Origin: Gemmataceae bacterium
Lineage (GTDB): Bacteria; Planctomycetota; Planctomycetia; Gemmatales; Gemmataceae
Length of the DNA: 64,000 nt
Assembly (NCBI GenBank): GCA_022616435.1
Contig: JAKEET010000045.1
Coordinates: 18,013 to 82,012 of the forward strand
Reading direction: 5' to 3'
Shown here: positions 1,554 through 16,180 of the stretch, one piece after another
How positions within the stretch are numbered: the first letter of the stretch is position 1
How the letters are laid out: each line of letters begins with the position of its first letter
The notes under the pieces: generated by a model
The model's database searches: none
Told to the model about the DNA's origin: nothing
What the model saw: only the letters and a program-made list of their open reading frames with translations
Made by a program: the position numbers and the translations under genes

Positions 1554-2039
1554 CTATTTCGGTGCGGATCGTTTCGGCACAGTCGGAAATCCCGCGGGCG
1601 GCAGGGCTCCTTCATCCGGCGGCACGCGCGCTTCCGGAATGTCGAGCGCCCGGCTCAGCAGGCTGCGAATTGTCAGCGTGTCGAGCGGGCTGGCCTTGAT
1701 GAGCAGCGAATTGGTCGCCGGGTCGGCGACCACACGGATGCGCTCGTTCCCAGGCATCATCGGACCGCCGCCGAACCTGCCCCTGTCGGATCGGCCGGCG
1801 TTGAACGCTTCATCCAGCACTCGTGCAACGTTGCCGGCCTGGGCGTGCTTCAAGCGCACCACGTCAAAGTCGCCGTCCGCCGCCGGCGCCTGCATCAGTC
1901 GAATCAATTCCGCGACCAGCGCCAGCACGTCCGGTTCGTCACACGTCACGATCAGCCGGTTGGCGACGGCGGTGATGACGATCGGCGCCCGGCCCTTCGC
2001 GGCCTTCGGCTCTTTGTTCGGGCCCTCGCCCTTCGCCAA
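1554..2039 (-). CDS. C-terminal fragment of a secretin-N (GspD N0/N1-like) repeat protein. It appears to continue from ORF 1939..3252 through a frameshift, and its annotated first codon is TTG
   Basis: Translation contains secretin-N-like modules (APIVITAVANRLIVTCDEPDVLALVAELIRLMQAP; NSLLIKASPLDTLTIRSLLSRAL). The frame stays open upstream of the TTG and overlaps the end of the 437-aa ORF. Confidence 0.5.
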   Translation of the reverse strand: MAKGEGPNKEPKAAKGRAPIVITAVANRLIVTCDEPDVLALVAELIRLMQAPAADGDFDVVRLKHAQAGNVARVLDEAFNAGRSDRGRFGGGPMMPGNERIRVVADPATNSLLIKASPLDTLTIRSLLSRALDIPEARVPPDEGALPPAGFPTVPKRSAPK

Positions 2040-3252
2040 CGGTTCGGGACGGACCGGCCGCCGGCCCTGTCGGCAGGATCACCTTGACCGGGTTGGACCG
2101 CATCTGCGTGAGCATGTTGTGCAGCGCCTCGGCCATCGCGCCGGCGCCGCCGCGCTCCAGGAGGAAGGTCCGCATCTTGCCCGGTGGATTCGCGCCCTCG
2201 CCGAGCAGCCGCAGCACGCTTTTCACTTCCTGCACCTGCTCGGCGCTGCCGCGTACGATCAGCGAGTTGCGGATTGGATCGGCGTCGATGAACGGCCCGC
2301 CCGATCTCGGGTCGCCGAACATGCCGCGCAGCGTGTCGGCCACCTTGGCGGCGTCGAGCGTGTTCAGTTGGAACAGCTCCGTATTGACCCGGGCGGCGTT
2401 CTCCTCGAGGTGCTGGGCGAGCGCAATATGGTCCTCGGCCGTGGCGAAGACGACGATCGAATTCGTTCCGACGGCGGAGACGCGAACCTTGGGCGAATCC
2501 TTGAAGATCTCTTGCACCAGCTTGGCGAGGCGCTCAGCCTGACCGGCGGGAACCGGGTAGGTGCGCAGGATGCCGGCCGCGGCCGGCGATTTTCCGCGGT
2601 CGTTCTCGCGCAGCTCGACCTCTTGAATCAAGTGGATCGCGCGGCGCAGATTGCTGGCGACATCGCGGACCACCAACTGGTTCGCCCGGCTCACAACGAC
2701 CACCTCGCCGAACACGCTCAACAGCTTCTTGAGTTCCGGCGCGAACTCATCAGCCGCGAGACTTTTCAAGCTGATCACGACGGAGACGATTTCCGAATTG
2801 CCGCGCTTGTCCAAGTCCGCAATCGACACGCGCGGAACCAGCGCTGAGTCGAGAGGCTGATCGGCCGACGCCAGAAGGATGGACTTGTCCCGGCGGATCA
2901 AGACGTAATTCTGTGACAAAAGGCCTTCATTGAGGAGATCGATCACTTCGCCGAGAGTGTATTTCTGGTTGGACGGCGCCGGGAAGTAGGTGAAGGTTCC
3001 CTTGGTTGGTTGAGAGCTGGCAATCACCGGCCAACCGGTGGTGCTCGACAACCATTCGAACGTAGCCGGCCAAGGAAGGGTGCGCGGCTGGAAAACGATG
3101 GTTCGTTCCTCCGCTTTGGGCTTGTCCTGCGCTGTCAGCGGTCCGGTAGGCGCCAGACAAGCGAAACCAACCACCAACACGCAACCCCGCTGCCGGGCAT
3201 TCCCGCGGATATTCATGGGTAGACTCCTGAAAGTTGTCGCGGCGACCGTCAA
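1939..3252 (-). CDS. secretin-N domain repeat protein (GspD-like N-terminal domains, signal peptide), N-terminal part. No C-terminal secretin pore domain is present
   Basis: MTVAATTFRSLPMNIRGNARQRGCVLVVGFACLAPTGPLTAQDK signal, then repeated modules ending in motifs like NSLIVRGSAEQVQEVKSVLRLL and NSIVVFATAEDHIALAQHLEE. The last ~35 aa (GPGADRHHRRRQPADRDV) look out-of-frame, consistent with a frameshift into 1554..2039. Confidence 0.6.
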   Translation of the reverse strand: MTVAATTFRSLPMNIRGNARQRGCVLVVGFACLAPTGPLTAQDKPKAEERTIVFQPRTLPWPATFEWLSSTTGWPVIASSQPTKGTFTYFPAPSNQKYTLGEVIDLLNEGLLSQNYVLIRRDKSILLASADQPLDSALVPRVSIADLDKRGNSEIVSVVISLKSLAADEFAPELKKLLSVFGEVVVVSRANQLVVRDVASNLRRAIHLIQEVELRENDRGKSPAAAGILRTYPVPAGQAERLAKLVQEIFKDSPKVRVSAVGTNSIVVFATAEDHIALAQHLEENAARVNTELFQLNTLDAAKVADTLRGMFGDPRSGGPFIDADPIRNSLIVRGSAEQVQEVKSVLRLLGEGANPPGKMRTFLLERGGAGAMAEALHNMLTQMRSNPVKVILPTGPAAGPSRTVGEGRGPEQRAEGREGPGADRHHRRRQPADRDV

Positions 3253-3350
3253 AGAGTTGAACCCACGCCGGGGCCGAAGGTCGCGAGAACTTGGCCGCCG
3301 TCATTCTTCGGTCCGAGTCAAAACGGACAGGTTGGAAAACCTATCCTACG

Positions 3351-4103
3351 TCAAATGGTGATCACCGTCCCCTGCCGCATCGGCGGCAGCGGCGCCTTGG
3401 CCAGGTCGAGCGTGTCCGGATAATGCGTGATGCGCAGCTTCTTGCGAATCGACGGCCGCACCGTCAACAAGTCGTCAAGATTGGTGTGCATGAACGCCGA
3501 GTTGGCCTCGTGGACGATCAGGTGGGCGTCGGCCAGCCAGTCGATGAGCGTCGGGTCGAACATGGTGTCGGCGCTGTAGCCCAGGCAGCGCTTGGCCGCC
3601 GTGCAACGCAACGCGATCGTCGGCACGCTGTGGATCGTCTTGCGGCACGCGATGCGAAATGGCCCGGCCTTGGTTTCCTCGCCCTCCGGCAACAAGCGCA
3701 GGTCGAAGAAATCATCCAGCGCGCGCTGCCGCGGCAAGGCGCCTGGCTTCTCGATCACCCATTCCATCGACCCTGACAGCACGCCGTTCCACAGCGAGTT
3801 GGCGACGTCGATGTGCGTGTACACGACCAGCGACCGCCCCAGGATGTAGCGGAAGTAATAACCGAGGCACTCCAGGCCGGAGACATGATCGCCGTGCAGA
3901 TGCGTGAGCACGATGGCGTCGATCTTGGAAACGTCGAACGCGACGCCGGCGGCCTGCGCCCCTTCGCGGACGATCTTGCGGATCGGATGCGGGCAATCCA
4001 CCATGAGCCAATGCCCGCCGCTTTCCAGCGCGAAGCACGAGGAGTAGTAGAGGGCCGAAAAGGCGTCGCCCGTGCCCAGACACAACAGTCGCAGATCGCT
4101 CAT
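3351..4103 (-). CDS. MBL-fold metallo-hydrolase (β-lactamase superfamily)
   Basis: MSDLRLLCLGTGDAFSALYYSSCFALESGGHWLMVDCPHPIRK...VLTHLHGDHVSGLE carries the HxHxDH motif. The ATG is the complement of 4101-4103 and overlaps the stop of the upstream cytochrome by 4 nt (ATGA coupling). The longer 469-aa ORF has a non-protein-like Arg/Pro-rich N-extension. Confidence 0.75.
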   Translation of the reverse strand: MSDLRLLCLGTGDAFSALYYSSCFALESGGHWLMVDCPHPIRKIVREGAQAAGVAFDVSKIDAIVLTHLHGDHVSGLECLGYYFRYILGRSLVVYTHIDVANSLWNGVLSGSMEWVIEKPGALPRQRALDDFFDLRLLPEGEETKAGPFRIACRKTIHSVPTIALRCTAAKRCLGYSADTMFDPTLIDWLADAHLIVHEANSAFMHTNLDDLLTVRPSIRKKLRITHYPDTLDLAKAPLPPMRQGTVITI

Positions 4104-5569
4104 GGGCTCCCCTTCAGAAATCGTTGCACATCGGGCAAGGGTCCATGCGGCGGCTGCCGAAGCGCGGCGCCGCGGCCGTGCAGCGGTTGGTCGCCGCCGT
4201 GGTAGCGGTGGCACTCGACGCAATCGTGCCGGGCGCCGCCCGCGACGCGGCCGCCGGCTGCGTGCGGCGGCGCGTGACATGTCCGGCAGAGTTTCACGCC
4301 GGGCAACAGCACATCGGCGGGGCCGCGCGATTGTTCCACATCCACATGGCACACGGCGCAGGCCACGCCGCGATGCGCGGTGTGGTCGAAGCGGGCGTGC
4401 TGGAACCAGACCGTCGGGATGTTCGCTGGGTCGATTCGCTGCGTCGCGCCGGTCTCGGTCAGCAGCGACGTGTGGCAGCGGCCGCAGGCGCCCTGGCCGA
4501 ACAGGATCGCTTCGGCGCCGCGGACATTCTCCTGAAGAATATCGGCGAGCTTCCGCGCATGCGCCTCCCGCTCGGGATTCTTGCCGGGCAACGGTCGCAG
4601 CGGCTGCTGGAGGAGCGACGCTCGATCCTTGATGAGGCGGTCGGTGAAGTAGCCGCGCAGCCAGGCGCGAACTTCGTCGGGCTGCAACCGGTGAGGGACG
4701 CTGGGTCGATCGAATCCCTTCGCCTCCTTGGCGAAATCCAGCGGATGGCACGCCTGGCAATGGCGGTCATAATGGATCGGGAGCATGTAATCCCCGGCGG
4801 CGCGGACGCGCTCGGGGGAAGCGCCGTCGGCGCGATGGCACGAAGCGCAATCGAGCTTGACGGGGTCCTTGTCGGCTTGCCCCGCCACGCGATAGCGCTC
4901 GCGGTGCTCGGGCGCGATGTCGGCGAGAACAAACGGCACACTCGTGTTCGCTTGCTCGCGAAGTCCGGCCGCGAGATGCAACTTGTGATTGAAGGCGATG
5001 CGGCCGGGGTCCTTGCCGTGCTCGCGGAGCACGCGGAACTCCGGATGGCGCTCGCCGAGGAAGCTGTCGACGTTCAGGAACGTCGTGGCGGCGCCGTCCT
5101 GGACATGGGCGGTGAGATTGCCGTGGCAGCGTGTGCACTGCTCGTTGGCGACGCGCCGCAAACCGGCGCTCCGGCCGCGATGCTCGCGATGACAGGTCGT
5201 GCAGCCGGCCACTTCCGCCGGCTTTTCGTTGTCGTGGTGGCGCGGTCCGGCATGGCAGGTTTGGCACTGCGCGTCGGCAGCGTGACTGGCGCCCAGGAGC
5301 GTGCCCGCCCAGTTCTGTCCGCTCAACGGTTGCGCGTTCGTGTGGCATGTGTCGCAGCGGTGTTCCCAGGTCGCGTGGACGTGGGCCAACGGGCCGGGCA
5401 GGTAGCGTGCGTCGCCGTGCCTGAACCATCCCCACAGCCAGAACAACGCCACCGCCGTCACCGCCGCGACGGGCAGCCACATCTGGGCCCGCGCGATCCG
5501 GTCGCGGCGACGATACCGCTCCGGCGGCACGTCGGCGAGGTTGTCCAGGATGGCGGCGTCGTGAGGCAT
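4100..5569 (-). CDS. membrane-anchored decaheme cytochrome c
   Basis: Ten CxxCH motifs (CDTCH, CQTCH, CTTCH, CTRCH, CASCH, CQACH, CGRCH, CAVCH, CRTCH, CVECH). There is an N-terminal TM helix (WLPVAAVTAVALFWLWGWF). Confidence 0.85.
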   Translation of the reverse strand: MPHDAAILDNLADVPPERYRRRDRIARAQMWLPVAAVTAVALFWLWGWFRHGDARYLPGPLAHVHATWEHRCDTCHTNAQPLSGQNWAGTLLGASHAADAQCQTCHAGPRHHDNEKPAEVAGCTTCHREHRGRSAGLRRVANEQCTRCHGNLTAHVQDGAATTFLNVDSFLGERHPEFRVLREHGKDPGRIAFNHKLHLAAGLREQANTSVPFVLADIAPEHRERYRVAGQADKDPVKLDCASCHRADGASPERVRAAGDYMLPIHYDRHCQACHPLDFAKEAKGFDRPSVPHRLQPDEVRAWLRGYFTDRLIKDRASLLQQPLRPLPGKNPEREAHARKLADILQENVRGAEAILFGQGACGRCHTSLLTETGATQRIDPANIPTVWFQHARFDHTAHRGVACAVCHVDVEQSRGPADVLLPGVKLCRTCHAPPHAAGGRVAGGARHDCVECHRYHGGDQPLHGRGAALRQPPHGPLPDVQRFLKGSP

Positions 5570-5587: not shown

Positions 5588-5626
5588 TCAGAGGCTATCC
5601 GAAAAGGGGTCAGACCCCTCAAAATC
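5588..5626. repeat. REP-like palindrome family A (…GAGGCTATCCGAAAAGGGGTCAGACCCCT…). Related copies occur at 26993-27032 and 57243-57292
   Basis: Hairpin-forming sequence immediately 3' of the stop of the 5619..6503 gene. The same core is seen at two other loci, in both orientations. Confidence 0.6.
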
Positions 5627-6503
5627 CCCCGTACCACATACTCAGCGCGACGTGTTCGATCATCAACACGAGAAGGGCCCAGGCCGCCGGACCGTGCACG
5701 AGCAGCCAGAGCCGGCCGAGCTGGTGCAAGCGATACTCCAGGTCCATCGAACGCCGCAGCTCGACGAGCCCCCACAGGTCATCGAGGATCGGTTGCTGCT
5801 TGGCGTCGGCATAGCTGCGCGTGCGCTGATACCAGTTTTCCGACAAAGCTTCCGGCTCCGCCTGGGGATGCCACACCCAGCTCCAGAAGGTCAGCGGCCG
5901 CGCCAGGCAACCCTGCACGGCCGCCCCGCAGAAGCCGCGGATCACGTCAGGGCTCTCGGCCAGTTCTTTCTTGCGAACCAGTTCTTCCGCCGCTTGCAGC
6001 ATGAAGACGCGCTGCGGCTCCAGACGCTCCAGGCCGAATTCCCGGGCCACCATGCGCGGCAGGAAGGAGTAGAGCAACTTCTGGCCGTAGAAACCGACGA
6101 CGCCGGAGATCATGACGATCCAGGTCAGCCACACCAGGGCCAGCGTCAGGGGGCTGTTGGCCCGGCCGCGGCTGTGGACGATGACCAACAAGAACGCCAG
6201 GTACGCCGCGGCGATGTGCCAGCGCAGCCAGGCGGTCATCGGTGGGCCCTGTCGATAGCGGAAGCAGCGCCTGAGGATGTGCAGGTACGGGACCAGCATG
6301 GCGACGAACGCCCCGTAGCCGGCGAGCCGCGCCGCCGCGCGCAGCCCAAACGACTCCCATTCCGGCCCCAAGGCCACGAGAATCCAGAGCAGCACGAGCG
6401 CCGCGAAGAGGCCGATCGAGCCCGGCTGCAAGATGTCCCAGGTGAGGGATCGTTTTCCAGTGGTGCGCATGCCAGCATCCAACACGGCGTCATGTCGCCG
6501 CAC
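5619..6503 (-). CDS. polytopic integral membrane protein (≥5 TM helices, conserved His in helices; possibly a b-type cytochrome/quinol-interacting subunit)
   Basis: Hydrophobic helices (IGLFAALVLLWILVALG; YGAFVAMLVPYLHIL; WHIAAAYLAFLLVIVHS; LALVWLTWIVMISGVVGFY; LWLLVHGPAAWALLVLMIEHVAL). It sits between the cNMP/Fe-S gene and the decaheme cytochrome on the same strand. Confidence 0.55.
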   Translation of the reverse strand: MRRHDAVLDAGMRTTGKRSLTWDILQPGSIGLFAALVLLWILVALGPEWESFGLRAAARLAGYGAFVAMLVPYLHILRRCFRYRQGPPMTAWLRWHIAAAYLAFLLVIVHSRGRANSPLTLALVWLTWIVMISGVVGFYGQKLLYSFLPRMVAREFGLERLEPQRVFMLQAAEELVRKKELAESPDVIRGFCGAAVQGCLARPLTFWSWVWHPQAEPEALSENWYQRTRSYADAKQQPILDDLWGLVELRRSMDLEYRLHQLGRLWLLVHGPAAWALLVLMIEHVALSMWYGGF

Positions 6504-6518
6504 TCCAAGTCGTCCCGC

Positions 6519-8747
6519 TTACTGCCGCCCCGCGAAGTTGGCCCAGCTCTTCAACTGCGGGAAATACTCGACCGGATCGACGCGCTGGGCGGCATCGTAC
6601 GGGCAGCAGGCCACGCAGGGCGGATCGTAGTCGTCGGTCAGGCACAGATCGCACTTGTTGGCCACGATCCCCGGCCGCGAGCTGGGCGCGTCCAGGGGCG
6701 ATGTCGGCTGGTACATGTCGATGACGTCGAAGGGGCATTCGCGGGCGCATTGCTGACAGCCGATGCACCGATCGCGATGGATCTGCACCGCCTGGTTTTC
6801 GAGCCAGGTGATGGCGCCCACGGGACAGACCTGCTGGCACGGCGCGTCGAGGCAGTGCAGGCAGGCGCCGGCGACTTCCCAGTGGCCGAACCGCCATTTC
6901 GGATTGGCGCGATGGAAGCGCGGCTGGCCGTCGTGGGCCTCCGCGCAGCCGCGCACGCACTGGTCGCAGCGCGTACACTTGTCCATGTCGATCAAGAGCA
7001 GGTTGCGCGTCAGCATCAGCTTGTCGGCCAGGGCTTGCGGCGGCTCTTGCGGCGGCAGCAGACGGCCGGCGCGCATGTGCTCGTCGCGCACCGACAGGAG
7101 CCGGCGTTCGCGCTGCAGCTTGGCGCCGAGAGCCTGGTACGGTCCGGCGAACAGCGACCGCAGCACGTCGCGATCGAGCCGCAGCAGCGTGGTGCTGCAC
7201 AGCGTCTCCACGGCGGCGGAGCGGACCGGCATCGCGTCGCCTTCCTCCAGGACCGCGGATTCGCCGAAGTACGCGTCGGCCTCCAGGTTGTTCACCATGG
7301 ATTGCCCGCCCGGCAGGTCGAGACTGACCCGGACCATGCCGCTCAGGAGCAGGAACAAGCAATCGGCAGGGTCGCCTTGCTTGAACACGGCCACGCCTTT
7401 CTTGTCGCTCTTCCTGTCCTTCTGTTCCAGGCGGTCGGGTTGCAGAGGCTTGCCGAACTTCTGGTGATACGCCGCCGCGAAGGCTTCCGTGAAGCCGCGA
7501 AATTCCTCGCCGGTCAACGGGAACGGCCGCGGGCTGCTCGCCACGACGCCGGGCCAAGCCGCCTCCAGCAACAAGCGATTGAGCCGGAAGACCTCACAAT
7601 CGTTGAGCGTGTCGCGCCGCTGCAACGCTTGCCGGGACTCGTCGTCGAGCGCCGACGTGGCCCGCTCGTCCGCCGCGGCCAGCAAACGCCTCCGGGTCAG
7701 CGCTCCATTGAGATGTTCGACAATGTGTGTCTTCTCCGCGAAGTCCAGGCGCTCGGCGGGTTCCTTGAGCAGCCACGGCAACGCTTTGACAAGCCGCTTG
7801 CCCAGCCGGGCCGGCCAGCCGGCGCCCGGGTCGCGCAGCGCGGCCAGCAGCCGCGGCCAGTCCAGGACGTCTTCCACGAACACGCGATCGCGAAACAAGC
7901 GGTTCCTGGCCAGCACGCTCGGCAGCGTGCTTCGCACGAACTCCGCCAGCTCGCGCTCGTAAAAGCGCGGGCTCTTCTTGATGATCTCTTCGAGGGCCTT
8001 GCGCTTGATCAGCAGCATCACGCACGGCTTGCCGCCGTCGTCCGGATCGTCGTCCGCGACCAGCGTCGCCGAGCGCGGCTGATTCCAGAGCGTGCCGGTG
8101 ATGCCCATGAAACGATCTTCGAGCGGCTTGATGTTGTTGGCCGCGTCGCGGATGGTGATGGCGGCCCGGGGGGTCGCGGCGGCTTGACCGGCGGCGGCGA
8201 CAAAGGCGCTGCTCGGGTTGGACAGCTCGCGTTCCAGGCGGTGGACCGGCGGCATGCGTCCGTGGAGGGCGCGGGCGACGTGGTTGCGAACGCGCTGGGC
8301 GGCGGCCGCCGGCAACCAATGCTCGGCGGCATCGATCAGCTTCAGCGGAAGGCCGGGGAGCCGGCGGTACAGCGGCGCCAGCCAGCCGAACCAGCCGCGT
8401 CCCGGCGGCGCGTCCTTGGGCCAGGTCGCGGCCTGGCGGAGCACGGCGTTTTCCAGCCGCCGCGCCAGCGGCTTCTCCCAGCAGCCGCGGCCGACCGGCG
8501 CCGCCGGCGGCGCGATGTCGCGGACGCCGACCCGCCCCTGGATGTGCACGGCGGCATAGTCGCTCGTGGTCCCCTTGGCCATGATGACTTCGCCGGCCGT
8601 GTACTGGATCAGGAAGAAGTGGATGCCGCGCTTGGCTTCGCCTTCCTCGTAGAACGACTTGAGAGTGGCGAGCGCCTTGGCGTCGAGACCGGGAATGCCC
8701 TGCAAGTGTTCCTGAATGGTTTGCCAATCCGCCGGGAGTTGTTGCAT
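6519..8747 (-). CDS. fusion protein with two cyclic-nucleotide-binding (cNMP/CAP-type) domains and a C-terminal 4Fe-4S ferredoxin region
   Basis: The N-terminal region (FFLIQYTAGEVIMAKGTTSDYAAVHIQGRVGV) and a second region (VAVFKQGDPADCLFLLLSGMVRVSL...AYFGESAVLE) look like cNMP-binding β-barrels. The C-terminus carries Cys clusters CTRCDQCVRGC, CLHCLDAPCQQVCP, CIGCQQCARECP and CDLCLTDDYDPPCVACCP. The antisense 1149-aa ORF 5568..9017 is rejected. Confidence 0.7.
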   Translation of the reverse strand: MQQLPADWQTIQEHLQGIPGLDAKALATLKSFYEEGEAKRGIHFFLIQYTAGEVIMAKGTTSDYAAVHIQGRVGVRDIAPPAAPVGRGCWEKPLARRLENAVLRQAATWPKDAPPGRGWFGWLAPLYRRLPGLPLKLIDAAEHWLPAAAAQRVRNHVARALHGRMPPVHRLERELSNPSSAFVAAAGQAAATPRAAITIRDAANNIKPLEDRFMGITGTLWNQPRSATLVADDDPDDGGKPCVMLLIKRKALEEIIKKSPRFYERELAEFVRSTLPSVLARNRLFRDRVFVEDVLDWPRLLAALRDPGAGWPARLGKRLVKALPWLLKEPAERLDFAEKTHIVEHLNGALTRRRLLAAADERATSALDDESRQALQRRDTLNDCEVFRLNRLLLEAAWPGVVASSPRPFPLTGEEFRGFTEAFAAAYHQKFGKPLQPDRLEQKDRKSDKKGVAVFKQGDPADCLFLLLSGMVRVSLDLPGGQSMVNNLEADAYFGESAVLEEGDAMPVRSAAVETLCSTTLLRLDRDVLRSLFAGPYQALGAKLQRERRLLSVRDEHMRAGRLLPPQEPPQALADKLMLTRNLLLIDMDKCTRCDQCVRGCAEAHDGQPRFHRANPKWRFGHWEVAGACLHCLDAPCQQVCPVGAITWLENQAVQIHRDRCIGCQQCARECPFDVIDMYQPTSPLDAPSSRPGIVANKCDLCLTDDYDPPCVACCPYDAAQRVDPVEYFPQLKSWANFAGRQ

Positions 8748-8977: not shown

Positions 8978-9052
8978 TCGCGGCGTGAGCGCGACGTGGT
9001 GTTCGAGCAGTTACTAACCCGCACACACGTCGGGCTCACGCCGCGACGCTCG
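8978..9052. repeat. REP-like palindrome family B (GGCGAGCGTCGCGGCGTGAGC … GGGCTCACGCCGCGACGCTCGCC). Related copies occur at 12537-12631 and ~47690-47760
   Basis: Inverted repeat with 21-bp arms and ~40-nt loop in the divergent intergenic region. It overlaps the 5' end of the longest ORF for the next cytochrome, which argues for a later start. Confidence 0.6.
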
Positions 9053-9070
9053 CCGTTGCTTGAGGTGAAC

Positions 9071-10495
9071 GTGCATCGGCGCCTCTTCGTACTGGGTTCC
9101 ATCCTGCTGTTCCTCGCCGCGGCGTGGGCGCGCCGCGGTCCGTCGGCTCAGGAGCCGTTGCCGCGCCGGGTTCCGACCCCTGTACGTTCCAACTTCGAGC
9201 TGCTTGGGGCCGGCTCGTGCGCCGCGCAGGCGTGCCATAACGCCGACCCTTTGAACGGGATGCAAGGCGGGGAATACCGGATCGCCTACGAGCGCGCTTT
9301 CTCGGGAGAGGCGCCGCACGTCAAGGACAAGCATGCTCAGGCGTTCGCAGTGCTTTTTGACGAACGGTCGCAGCGCATCGTTCGCCAGTGGAAAGGGCTG
9401 TCGGCAAGAGACACGGTTCATCCGGAGCGCGAAGCGTTGTGCCTTCGCTGCCACGTGCATCCGGACTACGATCGGCTTCCCGTTCGGTTCGCCGACGGCG
9501 TGGCCCAGTTTCGCCTGGAGGACGGCGTCAGTTGCGAGGCCTGTCACGGTCCGGCACAGCGCTGGCTGGCGGCGCACTTCCGGCCGGGATGGAAGAACCT
9601 GTCCTCCGCGCGCCGCGCCGAGTTCGGCATGACCGACACGCGTTCGTTGGCCGGGCGCGTGCGCATCTGCCTCGATTGTCACGGCGGCCGCCCGGACGCG
9701 CAAGTCGATCACGATCTCATCGCGGCGGGTCATCCGTGGTTGAAGTTCGAAATGGGCGATTATCACGCGCTCTGGCACAAGCATTGGGACGGCGCCAAGG
9801 ACAAGAAGCCCGGCACGGACCGGCGGGGCCGCGCCGACTTCGAGGCCCGCTTGTGGCTGGTGGGCCAGGTCGCATCCGCCAAGGCCGCGCTCGACTTGCT
9901 GGCGGCAAGGGCGCGCGATCCGAAACGTCCGTGGCCGGAATTCGCCGAGCAGGACTGCTTCGCGTGTCACCATGACTTGAGCGCGAAAGCAGGGCCGCCT
10001 GCCGAAGACGCCAGGGCCGGGGCGCCCGCCTGGAACGCGTGGTACACGGCCATGCTGCCCGCCGCGGTCGGCGAAGATGCCGCGAAGCTCGGCAAGCCGC
10101 TTGGCGAGCTGCGAACGCTGATGGCATCGTGGCGGCCGGATCGAGAGCAAGTCGCGGCACATGCTCGGGAGGCCGCCGCCCAGCTCCAGGCGTGGATCGC
10201 GGCGTGGGAACTCCACGAACCCGGGCCGCTCGCCGTCGACGCGATGACGCGACAACTGCTGGCCATGGGCGACGCACGCGCGTCACAGTCCTGGACGACG
10301 GCCGCCCAGTGGCAGCGCGCCCTATCGGGAATGGAGCGGGCGCGTCAGGATATGAAGGTGCCGGCGCCGGCCTGGTCCGTGCGGCTGCCGCTCCTGGAAA
10401 AGGCCCTGCGGCTGCCGCCCGGTTTCGCGAGTCCGCACGGCTACGATGCCGCGGCAGTCCGCGAGATCATCCGGTCCATGCACGAATCCAAGTAG
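9071..10495 (+). CDS. pentaheme cytochrome c, paralog 1 (signal peptide). The start is uncertain: GTG 9071 or 9065, and the longest ORF starts at GTG 8996
   Basis: CAAQACH, CLRCH, CEACH, CLDCH and CFACHH heme motifs. VHRRLFVLGSILLFLAAAWA is signal-like. GAGG precedes the GTG at 9071. It is paralogous to 10504..12072 and 22342..23721 (shared AAGHP[WP]L and DC[FY]ACHHDL blocks). Confidence 0.75.
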   Translation: MHRRLFVLGSILLFLAAAWARRGPSAQEPLPRRVPTPVRSNFELLGAGSCAAQACHNADPLNGMQGGEYRIAYERAFSGEAPHVKDKHAQAFAVLFDERSQRIVRQWKGLSARDTVHPEREALCLRCHVHPDYDRLPVRFADGVAQFRLEDGVSCEACHGPAQRWLAAHFRPGWKNLSSARRAEFGMTDTRSLAGRVRICLDCHGGRPDAQVDHDLIAAGHPWLKFEMGDYHALWHKHWDGAKDKKPGTDRRGRADFEARLWLVGQVASAKAALDLLAARARDPKRPWPEFAEQDCFACHHDLSAKAGPPAEDARAGAPAWNAWYTAMLPAAVGEDAAKLGKPLGELRTLMASWRPDREQVAAHAREAAAQLQAWIAAWELHEPGPLAVDAMTRQLLAMGDARASQSWTTAAQWQRALSGMERARQDMKVPAPAWSVRLPLLEKALRLPPGFASPHGYDAAAVREIIRSMHESK

Positions 10496-10503: not shown

Positions 10504-12072
10504 ATGTCCGCGAAGCTCATTCTCGCCGGCGCGGGTCTCACGTGCCTCGCGGCTTGCTTCTGGCAACCCTCGGCTCTCGAGCGCGCCGGCGCGGGAGACG
10601 GCAAACCGGCGCTCACCTACTTCGGCAACAGCACCTGCGCCGAATGCCACAACGAGGAGAAGATCCCGCCGAAGAAGAAGGTCGATTTCTCCATGCGCAC
10701 GGAGATGCACACCTGGTATCAACTCGACAAGCACAAGGACGCGATGAAGGTGCTGCTCGAGAAGCGCGGGACCCAGATCGCGGCACGCCTGGGCATCAAG
10801 GGCAAGCTGACCGACGGCAAGACCTGGAACAAGGACTGGGATCAGTGCGTGAGCTGCCACGGCGTGGTCGTGCCGCCGGGGGCCAAGCTCGACGCCTCGT
10901 TCGAGGACCACGAGGAACGCATCAGGAGCGGCGTGAGCTGCGTGTTCTGCCACGGCGCCGACGCGCGCTGGGTCGAGAAGCACGCCACCGACATCCTGGG
11001 CACGTGGGCCAAGTCCACGCGCGCGGAAAAGGAAGCCAAGCACGGCCTCGTCGATCTCTGGGACCCCGTGAAGCGCGCCGCCCTGTGCAGCGAATGCCAC
11101 ATCGGCAATGCGCGCAAGGGCAAGGTGGTCACGCACGAAATGTACGCCGCCGGCCATCCGCCCCTGCCCGGCTTCGAGATCCTGGCGTTCAGCGAGGCCA
11201 TGCCGCGGCACTGGGAGACCTGGTCCGAGAAGCTGGCGCGGCTCCCGAAAAACAAGGCGCTGTACGAACATGCCTATGAAACCAAGGCCGAGGCGTTCGA
11301 CGGCGAGCAGGTCCGGCTTCTGAACGTGTCGTCCGTGGTGGCCTTGCGGGCCGCGATGCAATTGGTCCACGATCTGGCCCGCCGGGACATCGACCATCCG
11401 AACGCCAAGGCGCCCGCCTGGCCGGCGCCCGCATGGCCGGAGCTGGCCGCGTTCGATTGCTACGCGTGCCATCACGACCTCAAGTCCGACAGTTGGCGGC
11501 ACCTGCGGACGACCGCGGGCCGGCCCGGCCGCCCGCACCTGCGTCCCTGGCCCAAGGTCTTGCCGGCCAGCGCCGCACGGCAAGCCGCCCAGCACGGCGC
11601 GGCTCCGTTGGCGGACGAATATCACAAACGCCTGAAGGACATGGGCGACGTGTTCGATCAAGCGCCGTTCGGCGACCCGCGCGCCGTCGCCGACAAGGCG
11701 GGCGCCGTGGTGACGTGGTGCGACCAGATGCTGAGCGCGTTGCCGAAGGACCAGGCCGCCGGTCGCAACGTGCTGATGGCCCTCTTGAACCGTCCGAAGG
11801 GGGAACTGCTCGATTTCGATTCGGCCCGGCAAATCGCCTGGGGCGCTCAAACCCTGCTGCCGGTCGTGGTCCCGGAGGCCGGCAAGCGTGCTGAAGTCAA
11901 AGTGCAGCTCGAGGCGCTGCGGCAGCAACTGATGTTGCAGCTTCCCAGAGGGCAAGTGCGCATCGCGGAGGACTTCTTGCCGCAGGTGTTGAAGCGCATC
12001 AGCACGTATGATCCGCGGCAGTTCCAGCAGACCATGGAAGCGCTCGCGGCGGAGGTCTTCCGCGACCGCTAG
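10504..12072 (+). CDS. pentaheme cytochrome c, paralog 2 (signal peptide)
   Basis: MSAKLILAGAGLTCLAACF signal. CAECH, CVSCH, CVFCH, CSECH and CYACHH motifs. A strong SD (AGGGGG) sits 6 nt before the ATG at 10504. The longer 677-aa ORF overlaps the previous gene and is rejected. Confidence 0.85.
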   Translation: MSAKLILAGAGLTCLAACFWQPSALERAGAGDGKPALTYFGNSTCAECHNEEKIPPKKKVDFSMRTEMHTWYQLDKHKDAMKVLLEKRGTQIAARLGIKGKLTDGKTWNKDWDQCVSCHGVVVPPGAKLDASFEDHEERIRSGVSCVFCHGADARWVEKHATDILGTWAKSTRAEKEAKHGLVDLWDPVKRAALCSECHIGNARKGKVVTHEMYAAGHPPLPGFEILAFSEAMPRHWETWSEKLARLPKNKALYEHAYETKAEAFDGEQVRLLNVSSVVALRAAMQLVHDLARRDIDHPNAKAPAWPAPAWPELAAFDCYACHHDLKSDSWRHLRTTAGRPGRPHLRPWPKVLPASAARQAAQHGAAPLADEYHKRLKDMGDVFDQAPFGDPRAVADKAGAVVTWCDQMLSALPKDQAAGRNVLMALLNRPKGELLDFDSARQIAWGAQTLLPVVVPEAGKRAEVKVQLEALRQQLMLQLPRGQVRIAEDFLPQVLKRISTYDPRQFQQTMEALAAEVFRDR

Positions 12073-12075
12073 GTG

Positions 12076-12426
12076 TCAGCGTTCCACCGGCGGCAGCGCC
12101 TTGGGCCCGTCGGTTCGATACGCCCCGGGGCCGCCTTGGTAACGCCGGCCGTGCCACCAGTTCAAGATGACGCGGCGTCGAAACTGCCCGCCTCGGTAAT
12201 CCCAACCCCACGTCCCGTCATGCGCCAGCGGCGCTTCACCCCTGCCCATCGGAGCGCCGCCGCCGACGTAGTACCCCGTGTAGCGGCCCGTGTCCGACGG
12301 CTTCGCGAAACGCGCCGTCGCTGGCCCGAAGCCGGCGCGGCGATGGTTGTCGTAGGAATCGGCAGGTTCGGCGTGAGCCGTCTGAATCATCAACAGCGCC
12401 GCCAGCCCAACAACTGTGTGTTTCAT
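12076..12426 (-). CDS. small secreted Gly/Tyr/Trp-rich hypothetical protein (~116 aa)
   Basis: MKHTVVGLAALLMIQTAHAEP signal peptide with cat at 12424-12426. The mature part is YYVGGGAPMGRGE...WGWDYRGGQFRRRVILNWWHGRRYQGGPGAYRTD. The opposite-strand 849-aa ORF is antisense junk. Confidence 0.5.
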   Translation of the reverse strand: MKHTVVGLAALLMIQTAHAEPADSYDNHRRAGFGPATARFAKPSDTGRYTGYYVGGGAPMGRGEAPLAHDGTWGWDYRGGQFRRRVILNWWHGRRYQGGPGAYRTDGPKALPPVER

Positions 12427-12536
12427 CGCGATCTCCTGCGTGGAACTCGCGCCGCCGGCGAGCGGCGCGGCGTAAGCCCGACGTGTCAGCATCTCACGAC
12501 GCGCCGGCATCCCACAATCCACGACCGCGTCGCGTC

Positions 12537-12639: not shown

Positions 12640-14559
12640 CTATCGTTCCGGGTTCCGCGGGAGCTTCAAATACGGCGGCCGGATGCCGCTGATGAAGAAC
12701 CGATCGACGCGGATCGCCGCCGGCGCGGAGTAGCCCTTGATGCCGAAGAACGTGACGACATCGTCCTGATCGACGCCGTCGCCGGAGACGCCGAACCCGC
12801 CCACGAGGATCGACTTCTTGTAGACGCCGGAGCTGCCGGGGAAGAAGACGACGCCGTTCTGGTTTTCCGGAATCCCCGGATCGCGGAAGTTCGTCCCGGG
12901 ATTGAACGCGTCAAAGCCCAGCACCGACGTGTGCGCCGCGACCGGCTGGATCGCGCCGACTTGCAGCCCGGTGATGCGGTTGGCGCCGGGATCGTTGAGG
13001 ATCGAGAACGGGCCCGGCGGCGCGCCGCTGACGCTGATCGGAAAGCGCGGATGCGACACGTACCGGAACGTGCGCGCCGTGAAGGCCACGCCCTTGGGCA
13101 ACAACTGATCCTCCGGCTGGATCGCGGCCGGGTCGTTGTAGTACGCCAGGTTGCGGGCCTTGGCGACGGCGACGTCGATCGAGAACACGGTCGCGTCCGG
13201 CATGCGATACAGGCCGAGCACCTCGCCCGTGGAATCGGTGACCGCGAAGACCATGCGGGTCCGTTCGTCCCTGGGCAGACGGATCTGGGCGCGGACGCGT
13301 TGCGCTTCTTGAATCGCCTGGCGGATGATGCGGCGCACCTCGGCGGCTTTGATGCCGGCCCCGGCATGCGGCCTGACCAGAAAGCCGGAGGGGACCGTTG
13401 CGCCGGCCTTGAACGGATCGCCCGCGGAATCAACCGGCTGGAAGCTCGCGCCTGCGAGCGTCCCCAGGCCGATGCCGAAATTGGCCTTGGCGAACGCGAC
13501 CAGGTTGGCGGGCCCGCGGTCGCCGCCGGGGCCGATCACGTCCAGCGTGATGCCGACCAGGTCGATGCGGCCATGGGGAATCGTGAAGCCCCGGAGCGCC
13601 GGGATGCCGCCGAGCGCGCCGACGGGGAAGCCGGCCGCCTTGCTGCCTCCCGCGGCGGCCAGGCCGATGAACTCGGCTTCGAGCGTGCGGTCCGGCCTGG
13701 TCGGATCGAAATCGGCGCTGAGCTTCGAGTTTTCTTCGCTGGCGAAGCCGGTGTCGCCGGGGAAGAACACGCCGATGCCGCCGACCAGCGTCCCGTGCTT
13801 GTAGATCGGGATGCCGCCGGGCAAGGTGGCGATGCCGCGCGATTGGTAGTGGTTGAGCGCCGACAGCCGATCGGCGGCGCTGAGGATGTACTCGCCGTAC
13901 GACAGGGGCGGGTCGATCTCCTTGCCGGCGGGGATGAATGCGGGGTTCACGTTGAAGCGGCTCGGCAGGGGCACGTCGTCGGCTGTGCCCTTCACGTGGT
14001 CGGCGCCGGGGTGCAGGATGCTGTCGCGGTTGCTGTGCTCGATGGCGAACAGGTCCACCTGCGGCGTGAACGCGACGTTCGGCGGGAAGTGGCCCTTGAC
14101 GCCGATGGGCGCGACGAAGCCGGGCCCGCGTTCCAGCGGATCGGTGAGGTTGGGGTTCGACTTGACTTCGCGTTCGGTGATGGTGGTCTGGCTGATGAAC
14201 TGGATGGTGCGCGAAGTCAAGGGAACGGTGTCATTGGCGAAGAACGCCGCGGTGCGCGCCTTGGCGATGGCGCCGTCGATGGCGAAGGCCTTGGTGTCCA
14301 GATCGGCCAGCAGCGCCGCGGAGACGCCGCCCTCCGTCAACACGCCCAGCAGATTGCCGCCGCGATCGACGATGGCGATGATGGCGTCGTCGCTGGCCGT
14401 CGCGACCGCGGCGCGGGCCAGCAGCCGGAACACGTTCGCCTCGGTCAGCACCGGCGGCGTCAGCGCGTTCTGGCTGGAAACCAGCGCCGGCACCGCACGA
14501 TCCTCGAGGGATTCGACGCTCAGCGGCGATCGACGGCGCGGACTCATGCTGGACGACAT
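12640..14559 (-). CDS. secreted protein with two GlcG/HbpS-like (DUF336, heme-binding) domains. The N-terminus carries an SVESLEDRAVPA motif instead of a hydrophobic signal peptide
   Basis: Two copies of the ...AIAKARTAAFF... / ...AVAKARNLAYYN... signature typical of GlcG/HbpS. The ATG at 14557-14559 is preceded by AGGAAGAGGAG, and the track ORF starts at the upstream TTG 14580. The stop is 17 bp downstream of the BBP7-like gene, so they are probably co-transcribed. Confidence 0.55.
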   Translation of the reverse strand: MSSSMSPRRRSPLSVESLEDRAVPALVSSQNALTPPVLTEANVFRLLARAAVATASDDAIIAIVDRGGNLLGVLTEGGVSAALLADLDTKAFAIDGAIAKARTAAFFANDTVPLTSRTIQFISQTTITEREVKSNPNLTDPLERGPGFVAPIGVKGHFPPNVAFTPQVDLFAIEHSNRDSILHPGADHVKGTADDVPLPSRFNVNPAFIPAGKEIDPPLSYGEYILSAADRLSALNHYQSRGIATLPGGIPIYKHGTLVGGIGVFFPGDTGFASEENSKLSADFDPTRPDRTLEAEFIGLAAAGGSKAAGFPVGALGGIPALRGFTIPHGRIDLVGITLDVIGPGGDRGPANLVAFAKANFGIGLGTLAGASFQPVDSAGDPFKAGATVPSGFLVRPHAGAGIKAAEVRRIIRQAIQEAQRVRAQIRLPRDERTRMVFAVTDSTGEVLGLYRMPDATVFSIDVAVAKARNLAYYNDPAAIQPEDQLLPKGVAFTARTFRYVSHPRFPISVSGAPPGPFSILNDPGANRITGLQVGAIQPVAAHTSVLGFDAFNPGTNFRDPGIPENQNGVVFFPGSSGVYKKSILVGGFGVSGDGVDQDDVVTFFGIKGYSAPAAIRVDRFFISGIRPPYLKLPRNPER

Positions 14560-14576
14560 CAAGTCACTCCTCTTCC

Positions 14577-15818
14577 TCAATACCGAAACTCAAACCCCCA
14601 GATCATCCCCTGCGCCCAGTAGTCCGAAGTCCGGAACGCCATGACCGGCTGCCGCGGCGTCGCCGGGCCGCCGAACGAGGCGCTCGTCGGGATCAGGTTG
14701 GGGTTCAGATTGCGGTCGATCTGCTCGCCGGGGCGGACCACGTCGCTCCAGTAGAGGAACGTGTACCCGCCGAACACGGTCAGCCGTTCGCTGATCCGCA
14801 GGCCGAGCTTGGCGCTCACCTCGGGAACCACGGCGAACGAGTCACGCGAGCACCTGCCGGAGTTCGTCGCCAGCGCGAACAACCCCGCCGGCTCGTCGGT
14901 CACCGGCGTCGTATCGATGATCGTTCGGCCGCGAACCAGGATTGTCTCGCGGACGTTGCCGAGCGCGACCTTCGACATCACCTGGAAGGTGAAACGCTTG
15001 TAGTGCAGGTCGATGCCGGCGCCCACCTGGCCGCCGAAGAAGTCGTTGTCCGCCTCGAAACGATCGAGCACGCTGACGCGGCGGCCGGCCAGCGGCCCCG
15101 CGGCCGGCGCCAGGGCCGTGCTTTCGGCGATGCTCAGTTCCTCGTCCAGGTCGAGATAGCGCAGACCGGCGAACACCGTCACATGGCAGCGTTCGCCATT
15201 GCGGAGGACGTGCTGCAGATTCAGCTCGGCCCCTTGCAGGAAACTGTCGGCGTCCACGGCGATGCTGCCGATGGCCGTGCCGGGGAAGCTCACCAGCGAG
15301 CTGTCTTCGCGCCTGTTGACGGCGTCGAAGAACGGCCGCGCCAGGATCGGGCTGCCGGGCGACGCCCGCGTGGGGCCGACGTCGCGGGCGCCGAGCAGGA
15401 AATAACTAGCGGCCAGCGACCACTCGTCGGCGGTCCCGAGCGCCATGACCACCGTGAATCGGCCGCCGTGGCGTTCCTCGAAATCGATGGCGTCGCCGTA
15501 CAGGATGCGCGTGAACTGCCTGCCCACCGCGCCTGGTCGCGGGTCCGACGTCGGCCCGGTCGTCAAGAGCGGCGGGATGCGGTCGTTCTTCGTGAACATC
15601 AAGAGGTAGTCGCCGAGGAAGCGCCAGCGGTGTTGGGCGGGTTCTTCCGCATGGATCACCGCCGCGGCTTCGTCCGTGGAAGGCGCGGCAGCTTCCGACG
15701 TTTCTTCCAGATTGCGACCCCAGGGCGGAACCAGCGCCGACTCCTGCGCGCAGACCTGACGCGGCTGCCACAGGAGCAGCACGAGAAGCAGCCAGAAACG
15801 CCGCCGGCCTTGACGCAT
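14577..15818 (-). CDS. outer-membrane β-barrel protein, BBP7-like (Planctomycete family)
   Basis: MRQGRRRFWLLLVLLLWQPRQVCAQE signal with cat at 15816-15818. Alternating amphipathic β-strands and a C-terminal ...GFEFRY. It is paralogous to 25602..26813, which ends ...QFNLRY. The 466-aa ORF has an implausible N-extension. Confidence 0.6.
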   Translation of the reverse strand: MRQGRRRFWLLLVLLLWQPRQVCAQESALVPPWGRNLEETSEAAAPSTDEAAAVIHAEEPAQHRWRFLGDYLLMFTKNDRIPPLLTTGPTSDPRPGAVGRQFTRILYGDAIDFEERHGGRFTVVMALGTADEWSLAASYFLLGARDVGPTRASPGSPILARPFFDAVNRREDSSLVSFPGTAIGSIAVDADSFLQGAELNLQHVLRNGERCHVTVFAGLRYLDLDEELSIAESTALAPAAGPLAGRRVSVLDRFEADNDFFGGQVGAGIDLHYKRFTFQVMSKVALGNVRETILVRGRTIIDTTPVTDEPAGLFALATNSGRCSRDSFAVVPEVSAKLGLRISERLTVFGGYTFLYWSDVVRPGEQIDRNLNPNLIPTSASFGGPATPRQPVMAFRTSDYWAQGMIWGFEFRY

Positions 15819-16180
15819 GACCGTCGTTCTACGATGGCGAGTTTGGGCAAAGGGTTCCCGACCTGCGGGTTGTATCGGCAGGCGGAAACCGATGCCTGAA
15901 GATGATCGCATTGCGTTCGAAATGCGTTGCGCGATGACGACACACGAGGCGCAACGCATTTTTCCGTGGTATGACACAACCTATTGCTGAGAACCATCTT
16001 AATTCGTCGCGCCGCGAAGTGAGCGCGGCGCGACGCATTTCTCGAGGCGCCTGGACTCCCGGTGCGACGTTATCCAGATTGCCCAGATTGTGAGATCGGC
16101 ACATTCGGGAGATTCGTCAAGGAATCCTTCGGCGGGCGACGATACCTGGAGAGGACGGGAAGTCTTGTCACAGGGCAGCG

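Follow-up and report, generated by a model that had tools for sequence, protein, structure and literature searches.

A cyclic-nucleotide-binding and iron–sulfur fusion protein of a Gemmataceae bacterium as part of a candidate nucleotide-controlled transmembrane electron conduit

Introduction

Bacterial cyclic nucleotides control transcription, channels, acetylation and cyclic di-GMP turnover. Whether they might also act on the flow of electrons across a membrane is the question raised by a gene cluster of a Gemmataceae bacterium (GenBank assembly GCA_022616435.1, contig JAKEET010000045.1, positions 18,013 to 82,012 of the forward strand). Within this stretch of 64,000 nucleotides (nt), hereafter the window, consecutive genes encode a protein that joins cyclic-nucleotide-binding (CNB) domains to an iron–sulfur (FeS) domain, a membrane protein, a decahaem cytochrome and a metallo-β-lactamase (MBL)-fold protein. 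A reading of the DNA alone (the original prediction) had described the first protein as an unusual fusion and had considered a regulatory link between cyclic AMP (cAMP) and redox reactions plausible. The present analysis showed that the finding was real and mostly correctly described, and that the locus belongs to a widespread, named and uncharacterised system or represents its planctomycete variant. It is likely that these genes encode a transmembrane electron conduit. That the conduit is controlled by a nucleotide in the planctomycete clade is a proposition with an even chance at best, and the complete statement, i.e., a transmembrane electron-transfer module controlled by a cyclic nucleoside monophosphate (cNMP) with built-in second-messenger control, is one that we hold in even balance.

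The system was named ptdABCDEFG in a 2024 preprint on marine Alphaproteobacteria of UBA11136, where it was also found in Gammaproteobacteria, Nitrospirales and Planctomycetes (bioRxiv 10.1101/2023.11.21.568154). PtdE is a CNB and 4Fe-4S protein, PtdF a ferric-reductase-like transmembrane (TM) protein and PtdG a periplasmic decahaem cytochrome (bioRxiv 10.1101/2023.11.21.568154).

Results and Discussion

Operon layout

Four co-directional genes were found on the minus strand from 8747 to 3351, in a window with a G+C content of ~66%:

6519–8747, minus strand: CNB–FeS fusion protein (PtdE-like), 742 amino acids (aa); open reading frame (ORF), Pfam, NCBIfam, alignment of 28 sequences
5619–6470, minus strand: predicted di-haem cytochrome b (PtdF-like), 283 aa, five TM helices and a cytoplasmic helical domain; alignment, model
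4100–5569, minus strand: decahaem c-type cytochrome (PtdG-like), 489 aa, 10 CxxCH motifs; Pfam Cytochrome_C7, c3_2 and Paired_CXXCH
3351–4103, minus strand: predicted Apyc1-family MBL-fold cyclic-nucleotide phosphodiesterase, 250 aa; Pfam, Protein Data Bank (PDB), ATGA overlap

The original prediction had noted the tight spacing of these genes, and this was borne out. The gap between the fusion and membrane protein genes was 15 nt when the whole membrane protein ORF (5619–6503) was considered, and 48 nt when the annotated start at 6470, which gives 283 aa, was used. The following gap of 49 nt contained the expected hairpin, GGGGTCTGACCCC, and then TTTT. The decahaem stop (TGA) and the MBL start (ATG) shared 4 nt (ATGA), again as predicted, and translation of the Apyc1-like gene is coupled to that of the decahaem gene.

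Predicted iron–sulfur wire and cyclic-nucleotide-binding domains of the fusion protein

The 742-aa protein matched, with 100% identity, a protein that NCBI labels 'cyclic nucleotide-binding domain-containing protein' in a Gemmataceae metagenome-assembled genome (MAG), and it lacked a signal peptide; therefore, it is expected to be cytoplasmic. An alignment with 28 homologs (44–80% identity), combined with profile and structure comparisons, divided it into the following parts:

7878–8642, minus strand: divergent N-terminal CNB-like β-barrel (CNB-A), aa ~36–290; hhalign, AlphaFold pattern, alignment
8172–8480, minus strand: helical insertion of ~100 aa within the first barrel, aa ~90–192; alignment, AlphaFold helices 93–188
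7503–7877, minus strand: helical linker domain, aa ~291–415; AlphaFold
7068–7460, minus strand: canonical CNB domain (CNB-B), aa ~430–560; Pfam, alignment
6552–7001, minus strand: HycB/HydN-type polyferredoxin domain, aa ~583–732; PDB, NCBIfam, alignment

The C-terminal Cys clusters had been predicted to be of the ferredoxin type, and several lines of evidence agreed with this. Several Pfam Fer4 families matched aa 588–720, and the closest PDB matches to aa 583–732 were HycB (7z0s_B, E = 6.9e-16), HycB3 (7qv7_A, E = 1.9e-15) and HycB4 of the hydrogen-dependent CO2 reductase (HDCR). The NCBIfam models of HydN and the AegA N-terminus matched the domain locally, under their whole-protein cutoffs. 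Four motifs of the CxxCxxCxxxC type (CTRCDQCVRGC, CLHCLDAPCQQVCP, CIGCQQCARECP and CDLCL...CVACCP) contributed 16 Cys in a 3 + 1 ligation pattern, all of which (16/16) were invariant in the 28 homologs. This number would suffice for four [4Fe-4S] clusters.

The 742-aa protein might instead serve chiefly in signalling, with FeS clusters that sense redox state or O2 by the logic of FNR and that, together with the nucleotide, regulate partner proteins. CNB domains typically occur in regulators, an FeS cluster is joined to a CRP-type domain in FNR, and Pfam revealed no catalytic domain in the fusion protein. However, Pfam revealed no helix-turn-helix or other output domain either, and four wire-type clusters of the HycB/HydN kind with 16 invariant Cys are typical of a relay and not of sensing. 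Furthermore, the gene obligately adjoins those of the di-haem membrane protein and the decahaem cytochrome, and in most relatives it is fused to HoxU-like modules (see below). A mainly signalling role is thus very improbable.

Of the two cNMP-binding domains originally proposed, the second was well supported. CNB-B has the CNB fold and matched Pfam cNMP_binding at aa 449–534 with 73.3 bits (cutoff, 27.5; E = 1.6e-20). Its cassette, FGESAVLEEGDAMPVRSA, retained Gly-Glu and Arg-Ser-Ala, and Gly495, Glu496 and Arg509 were invariant in the 28 homologs, in accordance with the conserved Arg and Glu that the original prediction had proposed to check in both barrels. The cassette loop was 4 aa longer than the canonical one and up to more than 30 residues longer in other clade members, and the Ser/Thr after the cassette Arg was replaced in several homologs (R[ST]A to RKA, RAA or RGS).

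The first domain was identified only as CNB-like. CNB-A scored 17.8 bits against Pfam PF00027 (cNMP_binding), and 20.5 bits when the insertion (aa 89–191) was cut out, both below the cutoff of 27.5. In hhalign comparisons it matched CNB-B of the same protein (E = 6e-5) and both CNB domains of the acidobacterial relatives (E = 2e-5 and 4e-5), and the AlphaFold model (predicted local distance difference test, pLDDT, 70–90) showed a β-barrel broken by helices 93–188 and followed by a long C-helix. In its cassette, FMGITGTLWNQPRSATLVA, the segment PRSATLVA was recognisable, Arg-Ser-Ala was kept and Arg225 was invariant, whereas the position of the ribose-contacting Glu was occupied by Ile in the window protein and by Ile, Val or Leu across the planctomycete clade. 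These features suggest a divergent CNB-like domain whose nucleotide binding, if any, may be non-standard. The insertion was shorter in P0044 and contained an additional immunoglobulin-like segment (PF05345) in P0025–P0031; the first CNB domain of the acidobacterial proteins was interrupted at the same site. For the linker (aa 291–415), hhalign detected no relatives outside the planctomycete clade. Additionally, Cys89 (codon 8480–8482) and Cys242 (codon 8021–8023) of CNB-A were invariant across the planctomycete clade, and His43 and His68 were near-invariant. These residues could act as a thiol switch or bind a metal or a cofactor.

Membrane protein and decahaem cytochrome

The membrane protein had been noted for its His residues, and their conservation suggests a function for them. 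Two His-x13-His pairs, His85/His99 and His259/His273 (14 residues apart), were invariant in 27 homologs with identities down to 26%. In the model (pLDDT 86.8), five TM helices were found, with TM4 and TM5 separated by a helical domain in the cytoplasm, and H85/H99 on TM3 and H259/H273 on TM5 were located at matching membrane depths. Because the loops followed the positive-inside pattern, H85 and H259 were placed on the cytoplasmic side of the membrane and H99 and H273 on its periplasmic side. The four-His pattern is thus predicted to form a bis-His di-haem bundle. The fold was a four-helix bundle comparable to those of known di-haem proteins. Fold matches included STEAP4, cytochrome b, cytochrome b561, the TM domain of NOX5, Dcytb, FdnI, b6 and HyaC, with moderate scores and with unrelated helical bundles mixed among them.

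No Pfam or NCBIfam model matched the window protein, and hence it could be placed in no named family (Ferric_reduct, Cytochrom_B561 or DUF4405); an acidobacterial homolog reached 24.6 bits against DUF4405, under the cutoff of 26.7. A full hidden Markov model search recovered 2,534 representatives at 50% identity (E ≤ 1e-3), 1,048 of them at E ≤ 1e-10, and the protein thus belongs to a large unnamed family. In three homologs (P0113, P0125 and P0132), the cytoplasmic domain between TM4 and TM5 was 100–200 aa larger, and the variable parts of both the fusion and the membrane protein were their cytoplasmic faces. One sequence (P0134) that appeared to fuse Fer4 domains to the membrane protein, and that would have demonstrated a physical link between the two, was discounted, as it looks like two neighbouring genes joined by a frameshift.

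The third protein contained exactly 10 CxxCH motifs, confirming its description as a decahaem cytochrome, and carried an N-terminal hydrophobic membrane anchor (aa ~30–50) after an Arg-rich sequence. A PDB sequence search with this protein gave no match.

Conservation of the cluster in Planctomycetota and Acidobacteriota

A scan of one genome per species identified relatives of the fusion protein in at least 488 species-level genomes; neighbours were counted within 10 kb at 83 loci. The best 80 loci belonged to a few Planctomycetota (Gemmataceae, Isosphaeraceae and Gemmatales), many Acidobacteriota (Terriglobales, Vicinamibacterales and Korobacteraceae) and one Methylomirabilia MAG. Nearly all of the 83 loci contained the fusion gene followed by adjoining homologs of the di-haem cytochrome b and decahaem genes, with a C554-like gene a few kb upstream of this trio, and the same fusion, membrane protein and decahaem arrangement was found on metagenomic contigs. 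The co-occurrence with multihaem cytochromes that had been proposed as a check on the prediction was thus extensive. Two planctomycete contigs contained only the fusion and membrane protein genes together, with no decahaem gene nearby; this pair is the invariant core of the system. In the window, the multihaem neighbours were as follows:

8996–10495, plus strand: C554-like multihaem cytochrome, four CxxCH and one CxxxxCH, divergent from the fusion gene; Pfam, syntenic
10504–12072, plus strand: second C554-like cytochrome, pentahaem, divergent from the fusion gene; Pfam, haem count
18397–22212, plus strand: LVIVD-repeat protein, ~1270 aa, nine CxxCH motifs
22342–23721, minus strand: third C554-like cytochrome, divergent from the cyclase gene; Pfam, haem count

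The earlier description of the fusion as unusual was not upheld. A profile of CNB-B and the FeS domain retrieved at least 4,706 clusters at 90% identity, and therefore the fusion is common; it has also been annotated already, and a cluster of this architecture has been named ptd. Outside the planctomycetes, the matching proteins aligned only to aa ~451–732. In a global profile alignment of the planctomycete N-terminus with the HoxU-like N-terminus of the acidobacterial proteins, nothing credible was found, and only aa ~404–742 aligned confidently. The acidobacterial proteins consisted of Fer2_4, a NuoG-type cluster and 2x[4Fe-4S] (HoxU-like), followed by two CNB domains and 4x[4Fe-4S], and the gene before them encoded a NuoE–NuoF fusion with sites for flavin mononucleotide, NADH and FeS clusters. 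The HoxU-like N-terminus was present at 71 of the 83 loci and the NuoEF-like neighbour at 70, and an LVIVD nonahaem gene was found at 59. On two planctomycete contigs, a 2-oxoacid:ferredoxin oxidoreductase (POR/PFOR_II with a thiamine pyrophosphate, TPP, domain) or a TPP enzyme was encoded within a few kb of the cluster (P0012 contig, 16441–19414; L001, 5367–7118). Such enzymes are possible ferredoxin-reducing donors for the clade lacking NuoEF, although the association was too inconsistent to count.

These front ends bear on the direction of electron flow. Electrons might move inward, with periplasmic cytochromes oxidising an external donor and passing electrons through the b haems to the FeS wire in a redox loop resembling NarI–NarH, or they might reach only the quinone pool, with the di-haem protein reducing quinone or oxidising quinol and the decahaem cytochrome serving as a separate quinol dehydrogenase of the CymA/NapC type. 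NarH–NarI likewise combines a di-haem cytochrome b with a four-cluster FeS protein at its cytoplasmic side, FdnI and HyaC were among the fold matches of the membrane protein, the decahaem cytochrome has a membrane anchor of its own, and the window contains no NADH module. However, the NADH-oxidising NuoEF and HoxU-like front end, fused or adjacent in most relatives, fits donation by NADH, and electrons passed to low-potential [4Fe-4S] clusters and NAD+ would have to move uphill and against the membrane potential. No quinone-site motif came up either, although no search was aimed at such motifs. Inward or quinone-limited flow is accordingly rated as unlikely.

Predicted cyclic-nucleotide enzymes associated with the cluster

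The product of the last gene of the operon passed the cutoff of Pfam Apyc1 (PF23023; 59.3 bits, cutoff 50). It aligned over its full length with the PDB structure of Apyc1 (7u2r_A, E = 6.4e-25, aa 3–235 on 2–227) and also matched 7t28_A and 7u2s_A, and its HxHxDH motif reads HLHGDH. Apyc1 enzymes are cyclic-mononucleotide phosphodiesterases. A potential enzyme for synthesis is encoded elsewhere in the window:

23759–25585, plus strand: GAF and class III nucleotide cyclase, 608 aa; Guanylate_cyc, 68 bits

Three planctomycete loci, namely the window, L084 and L002, joined cyclic-nucleotide enzymes to the cluster. At L084 (fusion protein 68% identical), an Apyc1-like ortholog occupied the same position as in the window. 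At L002 (fusion protein 51% identical), one co-directional string contained the fusion, membrane protein, decahaem, C554-like, GAF-cyclase and MBL genes; its cyclase was 42% identical to that of the window over the full length, and its MBL protein was 25% identical to the window protein and gave no Apyc1 match. Approximately 11 acidobacterial loci had a cyclase ~8 kb away, in similar positions in closely related genomes, and were not counted as independent. The link to a phosphodiesterase is therefore carried by the window and L084 and, more weakly, by L002.

The protein at 23759–25585 had been called an adenylate cyclase. The GAF domain and the class III assignment were supported, and its best PDB relatives were bacterial class III cyclases. 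Adenylate cyclases carry a Lys/Asp pair at the substrate-specifying positions. At the first position (..GTLVDYVGD..), the residue is Asp in the window cyclase, Ser in the L002 cyclase, Lys in CyaB and Glu in Cya2; at the second (..KYGPRG..), the window and L002 cyclases both have Gly, while the guanylate cyclase Cya2 has Glu/Gly. The second position is presumably the one at which mammalian adenylate cyclases carry their specifying Asp. Given that the Lys/Asp pair is missing, cAMP should not be assumed as the product, and the nucleotide that this enzyme would produce is uncertain. A Pycsar defence system was also considered and rejected; PADLOC gave only generic matches to class III cyclases and CNB domains.

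The same conduit could operate without nucleotide control if the planctomycete CNB-like domains were relics that act as a scaffold or in dimerisation, or that bind another ligand (a metal, a haem or a redox-active compound) through Cys89/Cys242 and His43/His68. This would agree with the loss of Glu from CNB-A and its score under the Pfam cutoff, with the two invariant Cys of this domain, and with the long and variable loop of CNB-B and the altered R[ST]A motifs (RKA, RAA or RGS) in several homologs. CRP-family domains can bind haem, as in CooA, or an FeS cluster, as in FNR, which gives this alternative a precedent. Conversely, CNB-B of the window, with a score of 73 bits, retains Gly-Glu and Arg-Ser-Ala, the operon contains a translationally coupled gene for an Apyc1-type phosphodiesterase, and an ortholog of the cyclase lies within the L002 operon. 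Furthermore, the acidobacterial relatives have canonical cassettes: 51 of 74 proteins had a complete FGE...R[ST]A in both CNB domains, and nearly all had it in one or both. We therefore regard the loss of nucleotide control as doubtful, and retain a nucleotide-responsive conduit as the preferred interpretation.

Proposed mechanism

The domain identities, invariant ligands, topology logic, synteny and phosphodiesterase family were obtained by the analysis, and a mechanism can be proposed from them. In this mechanism, the four [4Fe-4S] clusters of the cytoplasmic fusion protein would act as a wire similar to HycB/HydN, and the protein would dock on a five-helix membrane protein with two b-type haems, one per membrane face, each ligated by a His from helix 3 and one from helix 5. 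The membrane protein would pass electrons to the anchored periplasmic decahaem cytochrome, from which the C554-like cytochromes encoded nearby and the LVIVD nonahaem protein would receive them. The flow would run from the cytoplasm to the periplasm; an outward direction is argued because most relatives possess an NADH-oxidising front end (NuoEF and HoxU-like). Since an outward path that bypasses the proton pumps would drain reducing power, an allosteric switch would presumably be needed.

The CNB domain or domains could provide this switch by binding a cyclic mononucleotide that the GAF-cyclase (23759–25585) would produce and the Apyc1-type phosphodiesterase would remove. Binding would alter whether the FeS wire is connected with its donor or with the membrane haems. 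In Acidobacteriota, the two CNB domains are located between the HoxU-like and HycB-like FeS modules, where a ligand-driven domain movement could connect or interrupt the chain of clusters; the window protein has its sensor region ahead of the wire, from where docking to the donor or to the membrane subunit could be controlled. Cofactor loading, the direction of flow, nucleotide binding and gating of the conduit are what we infer. The original idea of a protein coupling cNMP sensing to electron transfer was strengthened by the synteny, by the Apyc1-family MBL protein and by the L002 cyclase; its gating part goes further than these data. In its most specific form, a second messenger would directly gate a respiratory-type wire, as a 'valve' from NAD(P)H or ferredoxin to the periplasm set by a dedicated cyclase and an Apyc1-type phosphodiesterase. 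We put this forward tentatively, as a possibility that falls somewhat short of an even chance; the regulatory idea is attractive and unproven.

Several observations weigh against nucleotide control or against the conduit as proposed. The GAF-cyclase lies ~15 kb from the fusion cluster, beside a C554-like gene, and a cyclase neighbour was found at only 12 of the 83 loci. An MBL protein of the window type was found at none of them (0/83) by tblastn. The planctomycete sensors look derived, with CNB-A lacking Glu and falling under the Pfam cutoff, and with the CNB-B cassette loop lengthened by 4 to more than 30 residues and its Ser/Thr replaced in several homologs. The FeS domain was modelled by AlphaFold with a pLDDT below 50, too poor for cluster geometry or a domain interface. 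No NuoEF or HoxU-like donor that could act as the cytoplasmic partner of the fusion protein was found in the window. Finally, the ptd preprint itself calls the function 'completely unknown' (bioRxiv 10.1101/2023.11.21.568154).

If the mechanism is correct, electron flow itself would be under post-translational allosteric control in soil and freshwater bacteria of the Acidobacteriota and Planctomycetota that number in the thousands. The module is also represented by thousands of protein clusters from metagenomes. The carriers include abundant soil Acidobacteriota, in which the module is linked with an NADH-oxidising front end and with multihaem cytochromes resembling extracellular-electron-transfer machinery. 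A regulated electron outlet of this kind would bear on redox balance or on the reduction of external acceptors in non-model soil bacteria, and it would constitute a small electron conduit that is genetically encoded and can be switched by a ligand. The hypothesis is directly testable, as the parts are small and simple assays exist for the ligands predicted (a cNMP, four [4Fe-4S] clusters and two haems b).

Comparison with known systems

Two further lines of the window are needed for comparison with the ptd cluster:

12640–14580, minus strand: HbpS-like (DUF336/GlcG) domain protein, 646 aa; Pfam
14577–15977, minus strand: BBP7 outer-membrane β-barrel porin, planctomycete-specific; Pfam, 283 bits

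The closest counterpart was the ptd cluster, the only CNB–FeS fusion system that turned up in literature searches. PtdE, PtdF and PtdG, compared by description only, match the window proteins at the level of architecture, i.e., a CNB–FeS protein, an adjoining ferric-reductase-like TM protein and an adjoining decahaem cytochrome. The likeness to PtdF is in line with the fold matches of the membrane protein, which include the TM domains of NOX5 and STEAP. The remaining ptd genes encode a pentahaem cytochrome (PtdA), a porin (PtdB), an oxidoreductase binding FAD and NAD(P) (PtdC) and a tetrahaem cytochrome (PtdD) (bioRxiv 10.1101/2023.11.21.568154). The authors suggest a porin–cytochrome complex and propose extracellular or periplasmic electron transfer (bioRxiv 10.1101/2023.11.21.568154). 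The three C554-like proteins near the window cluster, with four to five haem motifs, are plausible matches to PtdA and PtdD by description, and the BBP7 porin may be analogous to PtdB instead of homologous. In contrast, no PtdC-type oxidoreductase was found among the window genes scanned (3351–25585), and the acidobacterial relatives have a NuoEF-like module in its place. The BBP7 porin, Apyc1-type phosphodiesterase, GAF-cyclase, LVIVD nonahaem and HbpS-like proteins of the window are not among the ptd genes of the preprint. The preprint counts two FeS clusters in PtdE, whereas the window fusion has four Cys motifs, and its examples come from marine or saline samples, whereas the present cluster is from a Gemmataceae MAG. 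What the present analysis adds is the di-haem signature, the Apyc1 identity of the MBL protein, the in-operon cyclase of a relative and the highly conserved LVIVD nonahaem partner. It also adds the acidobacterial form fused to NuoEF/HoxU-like modules, whose composition suggests NADH as the donor.

The FeS domain resembles HycB, HydN and HycB3–4 of formate hydrogenlyase and HDCR (7z0s_B, 7qv7), which are cytoplasmic wires of four [4Fe-4S] clusters with the same Cys pattern. They are, however, stand-alone subunits of ~180–210 aa that link soluble enzymes, whereas the window domain is fused to a sensor and linker region of ~580 aa and paired with a di-haem membrane protein. In NarH–NarI and FdnH–FdnI, a four-cluster FeS subunit sits on a di-haem cytochrome b. 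The window system differs from both in having no molybdoenzyme partner, in having a multihaem cytochrome c as the partner on the outer face, and in its membrane protein, which belongs to an unrelated family with five TM helices and a cytoplasmic helical domain. Tmc/Hmc of sulfate reducers and Cbc/ImcH of Geobacter are also transmembrane conduits, in which a multihaem cytochrome c of the periplasm works together with a cytochrome b in the membrane and an FeS protein in the cytoplasm; their protein families differ from those of the window, with CCG-type FeS proteins and NrfD/HybB-like membrane subunits. By analogy, NarH–NarI, FdnH–FdnI and complexes of the Tmc/Hmc type appear to be the nearest characterised functional counterparts. 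To our knowledge, none of NarH–NarI, FdnH–FdnI, Tmc/Hmc and Cbc/ImcH has a cyclic-nucleotide sensor domain.

On the regulatory side, the anti-Pycsar protein Apyc1 (7u2r, 7u2s and 7t28) and the last gene of the operon share the MBL fold, HxHxDH and a full-length alignment, whereas the window gene is chromosomal and located in a respiratory-type operon and not in a phage. CRP, the acetyltransferase Rv0998, the EAL protein Bd1971 and the channels MloK1 and SthK differ from the fusion protein in that the output of the latter is an iron–sulfur electron wire. Literature searches turned up no characterised cNMP-regulated protein with an FeS or haem electron path as its output.

Other genes and DNA elements of the window

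Among the further genes associated with the cluster, the LVIVD nonahaem was the most conserved between phyla. It was 52–53% identical over ~1290 aa to acidobacterial orthologs (e.g., L047, 16162–19935, minus strand), whereas the other cluster proteins of the Gemmataceae MAG and Acidobacteriota were only 25–37% identical. NCBIfam gave only a local match to the selenite/tellurite-reduction cytochrome ExtM, and a PDB sequence search with the protein gave no match. It may be the last or the catalytic component of the system, or its gene may stem from horizontal transfer. The start of the first C554-like gene (8996–10495) is likely near 9071, where the signal peptide begins.

A GH63-like glycosidase neighboured the cluster at 48 of the 83 loci. 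This GH63/MGH1-like hydrolase of ~900 aa (L047, 1000–3702; L086, 3622–6339; L087, 7357–10053) was absent from the scanned part of the window and has no obvious tie to electron transfer. The BBP7 porin was a neighbour at one of the 83 loci and adjoined the cluster in L002 too.

Two hairpins were located within and after the operon:

5602–5618, minus strand: short GC hairpin and T-run between the membrane protein and decahaem genes; repeated palindrome
3325–3346, minus strand: terminator-like hairpin directly 3′ of the MBL gene; consensus scan only

The palindrome of the first, GGGGTC(T/A)GACCCC with a T-run, also occurred at 57254–57274 and, in a looser form, at 27000–27020, with six strand-matches in the window against 0.12 expected. 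This repetition suggests a REP-like (repetitive extragenic palindromic) or bidirectional terminator-like element. An Rfam scan of the whole window found only three tRNAs, and no riboswitch near the operon. Directly downstream of the operon, the protein at 1939–3252 (minus strand) contained three Secretin_N domains similar to those of type II/III secretion secretins.

HbpS-like proteins, which are large and appear to be secreted, accompanied the cluster in both phyla (25 of the 83 loci; e.g., L002, 3201–5198, and L011, 12870–14815). In both the window and L002, the HbpS-like gene was followed by a small conserved ORF (window 12076–12522, minus strand), with 49% identity between the two.

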